Source: a virus (Duplodnaviria; Heunggongvirae; Uroviricota; Caudoviricetes). Taken from it: a DNA stretch of 5,231 nt. The position numbers were made by a program. Location: IMG/VR virus record IMGVR_UViG_2667527898_000016; one strand, given 5' to 3'. Shown here piece by piece: positions 3,001 through 5,231 of the stretch (the stretch's first letter is position 1; each line of letters begins with the position of its first letter).

Positions 3001-5231
3001 TGCTTACCATCCGGTTTCGTGTAACAGGCAATGTATTCACCACGCCAGGGATAAGCCACAATGGAGGCCGGATTAAACTGACTCTGCCACTGTTCCGGTG
3101 AAATAATCTGCTCCGTCGCCAGAGCTGCATTACCGTTTGCATCAACAGACACCAGGCCATTTGTTCCTGCATACAGCACAAAGCCCTCCATCGCGACCAT
3201 ACTCCGCCTGCTCAGACACGCCTGCATTGAAGGAATTCTGGAGCCAGAAATTGTGGAAGGCGATACACCACTGAACAGATAAGGCTCACCCTTTGTCGCC
3301 ACCACCAGTGATGTTCCGAGCGGACAGATAGCTACAATATCTTCTGCCGTCGTGTGACGATTCACTTCCGGCCATGCATACGGCAGATACGCTTCCGAAA
3401 ACATCACTTCATTACCGGCAAATCCGGCGGCAATACCATTCGCCATCAGGCAAAGGCCTGTCATATTCTCCGGCGGCGGCAGGTAATCCCATGTCGCCAG
3501 CGAAGGTCCAAGATTTTTCGCCGGTATTTTATCCGTGTAACTGAGCACGGATGCATCCAGTTCAGCCACGAGTAAAAAATCGGCTTCTCCTCCCCCTGAG
3601 GCAGAACGATAAATACGACGACGTTTAATACTGGCATTCTGCAATGGCACCGGAGCCAGCGTCAGTTGTACCGCAGTTCCCGGAGTACGGAGTGTTACCT
3701 CCAGAGACGCCGGACCTGGCGGACCTTCTTCACCATAATCTGAGACAAAGGTTTCCGTATAAAACCGGGTTTCATCATCATTCGGGTTATCGTCAGAAAC
3801 ATCACCGCCCTGCTGGACAGTACAGACAGGAGCTGTCGTCGGCGCGGGGATCCCAAGACGATACGATGATGTCGGGTGATTCCCGTCCCCTTTTGTGGCA
3901 ATGGTCGCATCCGTCACTTTAGGAAAACGCCCGTCAGTGTAGTAAATACGCCCGTGGGGGTCCTGAGCGATCGGACTGCGGATCACATCCACCACATCCG
4001 GCCATGCAAACCAGAAATCGTCACGGTAATGAAAAATTGTTTTTGGCTTAATTGTGAATGTTTTCTCAACCCCGGATATCTGACGTTCTGGTGTAATAAC
4101 ACCAAACCGGAAATGGCAGTCCTCCGCCAGTACAGCGGAATGCTCGGGCAGCATGGATGTCACAACGCGCGGCATCATCCCACGCATCGTGGTGATATCG
4201 ATATAGGGCATAGAAATTCCTTTGACTGCTTCAGGCTTAAAAATCAGGGGATTTATGATGGAATTCGCTAAAATCGCGATCGGTATCACTGCAACAGAGT
4301 GTTGCTATGATATTCTGGACAAGACGTAACAACTCACTAATTGTTATCAAACGTCTTTCTTCTGGTCGGGGAGCATGTTGCTCCCCTTTTTTTACTGCAT
4401 TACCACCGCAGCTGTAGCAACAAGAGCCAGCACACCACCAAGCCACACAAACAGCATGAAGCACATTGCGCCTGTGGTGTAACGTTTTCTTCCGATTGTC
4501 CGGCATCTCTCTTTATTCATCATCTGCACCTTCTGAACTATCAGAAGATTCTGCGCATCCGGCAGGACCGCCATCAGGCACCAACAAGCCGTCTGACGCT
4601 CACACCATACAGCCCGTTTTTCGCCATTCCCGTATACAGAAAGGTATTCACCGTCTTCGTGTGGATACCCATTTCACTGGCAAGGCGACAGGGTCTCGAC
4701 TGGCGGTAGACATAACCGAACATCACCACCATCTCTGACATCGTCAGCGGTCGGGCAGCACTGTTATACGTCCAGACGCCGTTGTGTATGGCATCACTTA
4801 TCTGCTCACCATCACGGAGCAACTCCGCATCCAGTTGCAGAAAATGACGCCCCTGGAACATACACCGCATCAGCCTGCCCAGCAGGCCATCACTGATTAT
4901 CAGCCAGGATTCGTCAAAGTCCGGGATATAACGGCGGTTCTCCGGCATGAAAAACTCCCTCGCCAGTATCACACTGTGTTCCTTCAGTAACGCCTGCAGA
5001 CCGTACTCCAGATAGCGATTCCTGGTAGCCAGAATCACCTTCATCGCAGCACCTTCCTGTTTTTTATGCCCCATGAAAAACGGCAGACCAGAGTCCTGCG
5101 CCTGCCGTCATACTTCATGTCACCTTCAGCAATTAAAACTCGAAGTTCACACCTACGTTGTAGGAAACATCACCGTCGCTGGCCGCAATACCTGCTTTGG
5201 CTGCGGTCTGCTCGTTGAAGCGGTAACCCAC

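Follow-up and report, generated by a model that had tools for sequence, protein, structure and literature searches.

A stretch of viral DNA, 5,231 nucleotides long (the window; IMG/VR record IMGVR_UViG_2667527898_000016, Caudoviricetes), carries two small genes behind an adhesin gene: one for a putative regulator of 156 residues, and one for a membrane protein of 43 residues. They are the open reading frames (ORFs) "ORF-156" and "ORF-60", found downstream of phage-borne Eib-type adhesin genes in Escherichia coli. Direct reading places all genes of the window on the minus strand, in the order adhesin 3′ end, hairpin, 156-residue ORF, 43-residue ORF, GC-rich hairpin, and then a protein of 541 or 567 residues. 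The ORFs have been known in GenBank since 2000, and TosE, the relative of ORF-156 discussed below, is already in the literature.

GenBank AF151675 (phage P-EibD, strain ECOR-9), to which the window is 97.3% identical, carries annotations for eibD, a stem_loop, ORF-156D, ORF-60D, and an L0124-like gene. P-EibA and P-EibC share the layout of P-EibD; P-EibE has ORF-156E and a small ORF that lacks annotation. The closest records are a prophage of E. coli DETEC-S792 (99.9% identical over a 932-base query, window 4300-5231) and phage GER2 (Sepvirinae). The P-Eib GenBank records give no function for ORF-156 or ORF-60, the Prokaryotic Genome Annotation Pipeline (PGAP) calls both "hypothetical protein", and a search of one literature collection found no papers that discuss them.

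The neighboring gene is the key to their likely function. The segment 5133..5231 (minus strand) is the 3′ end of a gene for a YadA-type trimeric autotransporter adhesin of the Eib-related group (last 32 codons, ...NVGVNFEF), as judged from its PGAP name and from comparison of the anchor; the gene extends beyond the window edge, and only 5231..5133 lies inside. In the 99.9%-identical locus PGAP names it "YadA C-terminal domain-containing protein", and its anchor is common to EibA, EibC, EibD, and EibE. The initial annotation had called it an outer membrane protein gene. It does encode a β-barrel, but that of a YadA-type trimeric autotransporter anchor rather than of a Lom-type porin.

ORF-156 and the TosE family

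The regulator gene occupies 4574..5044 (minus strand; 156 codons plus stop), a call that draws on homologue starts, PGAP, the AlphaFold2 model, homology to TosE, and the ratio of non-synonymous to synonymous substitution rates (dN/dS). The frame is open from 5074 to 4574, which would give 166 residues; the ATG at 5044 gives 156. The true start is ATG 5044, because every homologue begins with the methionine of MK(V/F/L)I and PGAP annotates 156 residues, and the 166-residue reading was rejected as an over-extension. The initial annotation, which had placed a regulator and a small ORF at 4392-5074, was right that both genes are real and share a strand; the regulator starts at 5044, however, not at 5074. 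Purifying selection acts on the regulator: dN/dS is 0.1-0.2, and its synonymous sites are close to saturated.

Family libraries say little about this protein. Pfam and NCBIfam, searched at E≤1 for the GerE helix-turn-helix (HTH) and the REC domain that the initial annotation would predict, returned nothing, and PADLOC gave no match. The regulator also falls short of the gathering cut-off of the GerE profile (PF00196); TosE, its homologue, reaches 19.7 of the 23.5 bits required. In PHROGs, the two proteins of the cassette fall only into families of "unknown function", 6585 and 9340. A word-indexed search of 5.8 billion proteins found 45 relatives of the regulator: none carries a Pfam domain, and all those with a source name are E. 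coli "hypothetical protein" entries. When 1.84 billion representatives were searched exhaustively with a profile, only 37 proteins were found; the named ones are E. coli proteins except for one of Citrobacter farmeri.

Among these 37 proteins, P0050 was confirmed, from the tos operon (tosRCBDAEF), to be the TosE protein of the uropathogenic E. coli strain CFT073. The regulator and TosE (156 and 160 residues) are homologous over their full length: in BLASTP they are 32% identical across 151 of 156 residues (E=6e-31), and the hhalign probability is 99.8%. They share T-x-N after strand β1, a retained Asp, and the motifs P-[ED]-N-R and LTMxEM. In both cases a non-fimbrial adhesin gene lies immediately 5′, and a hairpin followed by a run of U separates it from the regulator gene. 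Judged by these sequence comparisons, ORF-156 is a member of the TosE family. The initial annotation had held that a match to a characterized family member would count against it; TosE is a partly characterized homologue, and the novelty of the regulator is thereby lowered.

The fold is clearer than the sequence. The full-length AlphaFold2 model (predicted local distance difference test 88; predicted template-modelling score 0.83) comprises a receiver-like (βα)4 domain, residues 1 to ~95, and a LuxR/GerE-type HTH, residues ~100-153. Essentially all top Foldseek hits in the PDB are full-length NarL/FixJ-type response regulators. The N-terminal domain has a CheY-like α/β fold, closest to REC domains, and the C-terminal domain is a four-helix DNA-binding domain superimposable on NarL-C/GerE. 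A profile-to-PDB search gave only four hits at E≤10, all of them LuxR-type HTHs (E 0.1-0.25); a search with the single sequence had yielded chance hits only, and these were discarded. The LuxR-type HTH of the initial annotation thus finds support in the profile hits, with which the model agrees.

The receiver-like domain is unusual at the positions that matter for phosphorylation. Where receivers carry an acidic pair, in the loop after β1 (strand residues 2-6), the regulator has T7-R8-N9. Alignment A3 (18 sequences) shows no variation at T7 and N9, which are at least 90% conserved in alignment A1 (26 sequences) and present also in TosE; therefore, the metal-binding acidic pair is absent. The end of β4 (residues 71-73) is variable. 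The model has no β5-α5 unit, and hence no conserved Lys. Residue D52, which follows β3 (residues 46/47-51), is invariant; its equivalence to the acceptor Asp is by topology only. The claim that the domain has lost its phospho-acceptor pocket is therefore only partly true: the acidic pair is missing from all members, but an Asp at the putative acceptor position is retained. No kinase gene was found in the cassette loci examined. Because the acidic pair, the β5-α5 unit, and the conserved Lys are all absent, the regulator likely acts independently of phosphorylation.

The 43-residue membrane protein

The small gene, the real part of "ORF-60", occupies 4392..4523 (minus strand; 43 codons plus stop). 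Its product (PGAP WP_255397728.1; PHROG 9340) is MMNKERCRTIGRKRYTTGAMCFMLFVWLGGVLALVATAAVVMQ. The call draws in addition on alignment A2, frame analysis, dN/dS, and hydropathy. The 60-residue reading was rejected as an over-extension: in the comparison loci L006, L007, and L012 the upstream frame is closed by stops that lie a few codons before the methionine of the small ORF.

A simple hydropathy calculation agrees with the initial description: a basic N-terminus, then a transmembrane helix at the C-terminus. The first 16 residues have a net charge of +5, the Kyte-Doolittle mean over 19 residues reaches 2.4 at residues 24-42, and one residue lies beyond the hydrophobic stretch. Across five variants the N-terminus has a net charge of +4 to +5, and 19-residue hydropathy is 2.4-2.5. 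By this calculation the protein shows the marks of a tail-anchored single-pass inner-membrane protein: one C-terminal hydrophobic helix and a positive-inside N-terminus.

Among 18 aligned variants (A2), the small protein has the invariant core Y-T-x-G-A-M-x-F-M-L-F-V-W-L-G-G, in which x is variable or nearly invariant. The final G of the core, invariant in those 18, is Ala in the separately fetched L006. The N-terminus is variable yet basic, and the distal half of the helix variable yet hydrophobic. Over a 29-codon core in seven nucleotide variants, dN/dS is 0.08-0.22, and eight of the ten multi-codon positions of the invariant motif show synonymous changes. Conservation therefore acts on the protein rather than on DNA or RNA. 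The small ORF, for which the initial annotation had proposed a conservation check, is a genuine conserved protein-coding gene whose true length is 41-43 residues. Described families in Pfam, NCBIfam, and PADLOC give no match to it.

The small ORF starts 43-54 nucleotides past the regulator stop, or overlaps it (ATGA). It is present in all examined prophage cassettes of the form adhesin-regulator-small ORF; regulator copies that are plasmid-like, island-borne, linked to kps, or without an adhesin gene lack it. When the EibA and EibC cassettes (L011 and L013) are compared with the EibD type, as in the window, the regulators are 97-98% identical and the small proteins only 77%, with the differences concentrated at the N-terminus and in the distal half-helix. 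This contrast suggests that a recombination breakpoint lies between the two genes or that the small protein evolves faster. Residues specific to regulators with a small-ORF partner were also sought, and the sequences were too few for any statement.

Hairpins, settings, and surroundings

Hairpins flank the pair, as first described. The upstream one (5076..5109, minus strand), between the adhesin and regulator genes, resembles an intrinsic terminator: a 10-bp stem, 5109..5080, is followed by U5 on the minus strand (z = -3.15). It was found in folding scans and corresponds to the stem_loop of AF151675. The same gap holds a GC-rich hairpin in six of six settings, with sequences that all differ (the unlike hairpins at this position include those of L005, L020, L028, L040, and tosA-tosE). 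The U run is U5-6 in five of the six; the plasmid-like L020 has only UUU.

The second hairpin (4368..4393, plus strand; folding scans) is GC-rich and lies directly 3′ of the small-ORF stop, with a GGGGAGC/GCUCCCC stem at 4386..4368. Its U7 tail is on the plus strand only; on the minus strand A7 precedes it, and there is no U tract. The strand with U7 opposes all genes of the window, and the hairpin falls within the part shared with phages that carry Shiga toxin (Stx) 2a. No plus-strand promoter and no Rfam family was found for it. Consensus scans found no σ70 promoter for the regulator or for an antisense RNA, and an Rfam scan of the window at E≤1 found no RNA family.

The ribosome-binding contexts of the two genes are nearly identical, as noted initially: by direct reading, the Shine-Dalgarno context GAAGGTGCTG (5047..5056, minus strand) ends 2 nucleotides before the regulator ATG, and GAAGGTGCAG (4524..4533, minus strand) directly abuts the ATG of the small ORF. 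This likeness is confined to EibA-, EibC-, and EibD-type cassettes; other variants have different upstream sequences.

Homologues of the regulator lie 80-90 nucleotides downstream of a YadA_anchor gene in lambdoid prophages, in 933W-like prophages, in a plasmid-like contig, and in a chromosomal island. The contig, with its ccdAB and vapBC-type genes, is probably a plasmid; the regulator of the island is only 47% identical. TosE itself follows the gene for the repeats-in-toxin (RTX) adhesin TosA. Members in prophage remnants are located near effector genes. In L024-L027 a gene at 4001-4516 encodes a 171-residue member, 62% identical, about 450 nucleotides upstream of kpsF and in the same direction; a group 2 capsule cluster begins there with kpsF. 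This linkage suggests that the family is tied more generally to surface structures.

The adhesin passenger domains are mosaic, and the anchor, terminator, regulator, and small ORF move together. The window-type adhesin (L002 8834-9949; 371 residues) shares only its C-terminal ~150 residues with EibA, EibC, EibD, and EibE (L010-L013). Upstream of most eib-type genes, about 25 nucleotides before the start codon, is the block ATTTGTATACAGATAATTT with the 8-bp palindrome TGTATACA (L010 ~930-950, with equivalents in L002, L006-L008, and L011-L013). This block could be an operator or an element of the 5′ untranslated region. L005 and the plasmid-type cassettes L020 and L022 lack this block and its palindrome, and a GGAATATCC-like upstream block is missing in the window's own type, L002/eibA. 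A common operator upstream of eib was sought by alignment, which yielded partly conserved palindromes only, none of them convincing. As activators of eib genes, IbrA and IbrB are known; a different prophage encodes them, which weighs against control of eib in cis by ORF-156.

The cassette is variably present: Stx2a phages align to window 171-4425 only, and in them it is missing or reduced to relics. Such variable presence is expected of a moron, and terminator-like hairpins are there; no σ70 consensus promoter was found. The moron-like arrangement first suggested is supported as that of a putative moron-type insert in the tail region. In 933W- and Sp5-type Stx phages only relics of the cassette are seen, without an adhesin gene. 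An O157:H7 Stx2 prophage (L004 4950-5280), for example, retains two regulator fragments (residues 25-77 and 119-156) and the last 14 codons of the small ORF; the regulator relic is annotated as a hypothetical protein of 62 or 63 residues (L0123 in 933W).

Downstream of the second hairpin, the ORF at 2586-4289 would encode 567 residues from a GTG start; PGAP starts it at ATG 4211 (541 residues). It belongs to PHROGs family 511, "internal virion protein", and has no Pfam match. Next on the minus strand, as in 933W-like phages, come genes for a tail-tip fiber protein (Pfam PF09327) and for 93- and 208-residue ORFs. After these comes the start of an Ail/Lom-family gene, interrupted by an insertion sequence at ~170; its remaining ORF has 51 codons (322..167). 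Positions 1-170 are the end of that insertion sequence, whose minus strand encodes a 38-residue protein stretch, which we take to be the N-terminus of InsA of IS1. Alignments to related phages begin at position 171. A 420-base query (window 1-420) had 73,162 matching places in E. coli genomes; the best places span only 171-420, and on that ground the high copy number is ascribed to 1-170.

A proposed adhesin-coupled regulator: model, alternatives, and known systems

We propose, with a probability of roughly 60%, that ORF-156 is an adhesin-coupled regulator that possibly reprograms surface or behavior genes of the host, and that the 43-residue membrane protein is its accessory. ORF-156 would be an orphan DNA-binding regulator, in which a LuxR/GerE-type HTH is joined to a truncated receiver-like domain predicted to be unable to bind the catalytic metal; with such a domain, its activity would probably be set by the amount made rather than by a kinase. 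The mobile cassette comprises, in order, the Eib-type autotransporter gene, the terminator hairpin, the regulator, and the membrane protein. The recurrence of adhesin, hairpin, and regulator suggests partial readthrough from the adhesin promoter. The regulator would most likely be transcribed in this way, through the adhesin terminator, and would thus be made in small, proportional amounts whenever the adhesin is expressed. It would then tune other host genes for surface or behavior.

In the literature on the tos operon, TosE and TosF are reported to suppress motility (PMC5956150, PMC7545054, PMC10392849). By this analogy, and from the shared position behind an adhesin gene, the first candidate output would be repression of flagellar motility (fliC). 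The 43-residue protein would be translated from the message of the regulator; it would probably insert with its basic N-terminus on the cytoplasmic side of the inner membrane and serve the cassette as an accessory. From its conserved, cytoplasm-proximal half-helix we infer a specific partner: the regulator, or a host membrane protein. One tentative and rather unlikely version, modeled on the single-pass anti-sigma factor encoded just 3′ of its sigma factor, makes the small protein a minimal membrane tether or anti-regulator of the TosE-like protein. The conserved half-helix and basic N-terminus would hold the regulator at the inner membrane; release upon an envelope or adhesin-linked cue would let adhesin display feed back on gene expression. 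Weaker still is the idea that the small protein modulates some membrane protein of the host that takes part in the non-separating, chain-forming growth observed with Eib-type adhesins.

Several points weigh against this proposal. By sequence comparison the identity to TosE is only 32%, and TosE appears to act with TosF; no TosF-like gene was found in the cassette. The mechanism of TosE and TosF themselves is termed "unknown" in the literature. Family libraries recognize neither domain of ORF-156. Some members of the family have no adhesin gene: they lie by kpsF, in an island beside hpa genes, or alone in prophage remnants. From its sequence, the hairpin behind the adhesin gene resembles an efficient terminator; readthrough is an assumption, and there could be a promoter that departs from the consensus. 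Linkage of the regulator could also be partly a matter of recombination hitch-hiking on the conserved 3′ anchor of the adhesin genes. Finally, D52 is kept, so control by phosphorylation or by acetyl phosphate may persist.

The main alternative to motility suppression is control of the adhesin gene itself, with ORF-156 as a dedicated activator or repressor, in cis, of its own eib-type gene. LuxR-type regulators beside autotransporter genes can act in this manner: AutA and AutR control the autotransporter gene upaB directly (PMC4844996). Close adjacency to YadA_anchor genes in four unrelated genomic backgrounds fits this alternative, as do the partly conserved blocks before eib starts, including the TGTATACA palindrome in most loci. 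However, neither the palindrome nor the GGAATATCC-like block occurs in all cassettes, family members without a neighboring adhesin gene exist, and TosE and TosF are tied to motility, not to control of tosA. We regard cis-regulation as possible but unlikely. Clearly less probable is that the 43-residue protein is a small membrane toxin (a type I or Hok-like toxin, a phage exclusion peptide, or a lysis-modulating peptide) and the regulator an unrelated neighbor. The protein is indeed short, very hydrophobic, and prophage-located; a 3′ hairpin has a U tract on the opposite strand; and Hok/Gef genes are present in the same prophages. Yet the toxin role floated in the initial annotation gains no support from Pfam, NCBIfam, or PADLOC toxin and defense families or from an Rfam search of the window. 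No antisense promoter is predicted, and an RNA that ended at the plus-strand terminator would have no overlap with the small ORF, because this terminator is outside the coding region. In the loci examined the small ORF never occurs apart from the regulator, and its spacing or overlap is typical of an operon partner. Small residues in the best-kept half-helix (G..A....G G) suggest a specific helix-helix contact rather than generic membrane damage.

Two further explanations carry even less weight. ORF-156 could be an orphan response regulator with a working receiver, whose D52 accepts phosphate from a kinase of the host or from acetyl phosphate. The invariance of D52 at the end of β3 and a fold closest to REC domains are in keeping with this; but T7 and N9 replace both metal-binding acidic residues in every member, TosE included, the missing β5-α5 unit leaves no position for the conserved Lys, and the residue at the end of β4 is variable. 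With no kinase gene in any locus and no score for Pfam Response_reg, a working receiver seems very unlikely. Least probable of all is that both ORFs are functionless passengers beside the recombinogenic conserved 3′ end of eib-type genes. Mosaic passenger domains set against a shared anchor and downstream region would be expected on that account, as would the decay of the cassette to fragments in 933W- and Sp5-type Stx phages. Against it, both genes remain intact, dN/dS stays at 0.1-0.2 across lineages that are almost saturated at synonymous sites, and the regulator family is kept in several independent contexts.

Eib proteins and related trimeric autotransporters are spread by prophages and mediate aggregation and chain-like adherence in commensal E. 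coli and in Shiga-toxin-producing E. coli negative for the locus of enterocyte effacement. If ORF-156 is indeed an adhesin-coupled regulator and each cassette carries a TosE-type protein, acquisition of such a phage would bring an adhesin together with a device for reprogramming host behavior, for example by turning flagella off upon expression of the adhesin. Reciprocal control of adherence and motility would then extend from fimbrial and RTX operons to phage-borne autotransporters, and a name and testable function would be available for an uncharacterized family as well as for the 933W relic ORF L0123. The conserved 43-residue protein is one more candidate functional small protein, of the kind often overlooked or given the wrong length by gene callers. 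Four points appear to be new: the link between ORF-156 and TosE; the fold assignment for a family missed by sequence libraries; the recurrent adhesin-hairpin-regulator design across mobile elements; and the evidence that the small ORF is a real conserved gene.

Comparison with known systems sets both proteins apart. MgrB, SafA, AcrZ, MgtS, Hok/Gef, and TisB resemble the 43-residue protein in size, in having a single helix, and often in lying beside or under a regulator; the 43-residue protein differs in having no sequence similarity to them, essentially no periplasmic part, and no evident antisense RNA. The NarL/FixJ regulators NarL, RcsB, EvgA, DosR, and VraR share no significant sequence similarity with ORF-156 (hhalign probability 2.5% for RcsB); unlike them, ORF-156 lacks the acidic pair, the β5-α5 unit, the Lys, and a partner kinase, and is some 50 residues shorter. 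GadE and DctR (YhiF) are likewise small (175-176 residues) with a C-terminal GerE domain, and their non-acidic T-[KR]-D after the first strand aligns in register with T7-R8-N9. Kinship suspected from this N-terminal motif was dismissed (hhalign probability <1%), and GadE and DctR differ further in being encoded in the chromosomal acid fitness island. HyxR and HyxA, presumably the same proteins as AutR and AutA, were considered as relatives and set aside for want of significant similarity.

TosE remains the closest parallel, although the settings differ. Its adhesin is of the RTX type and depends on type 1 export, whereas that of ORF-156 is a trimeric autotransporter; its gene lies in a chromosomal island, not a prophage, and is followed by one for TosF, a canonical GerE-domain protein, rather than by a gene for a 43-residue membrane protein. 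TosF thus corresponds to the small gene in position only: it has a LuxR-type HTH, is unrelated to the 43-residue protein, and matches the ORF-156 family only weakly and locally, in the HTH (hhalign probability 33%). PapX (MarR-like) and MrpJ (Xre-like) are encoded at the 3′ end of fimbrial adhesin operons and couple adhesin expression to flagella repression. Their protein families are unrelated to ORF-156, but the position behind adhesin genes is the same, and in this they offer a possible functional analogy for the phage-borne cassette.

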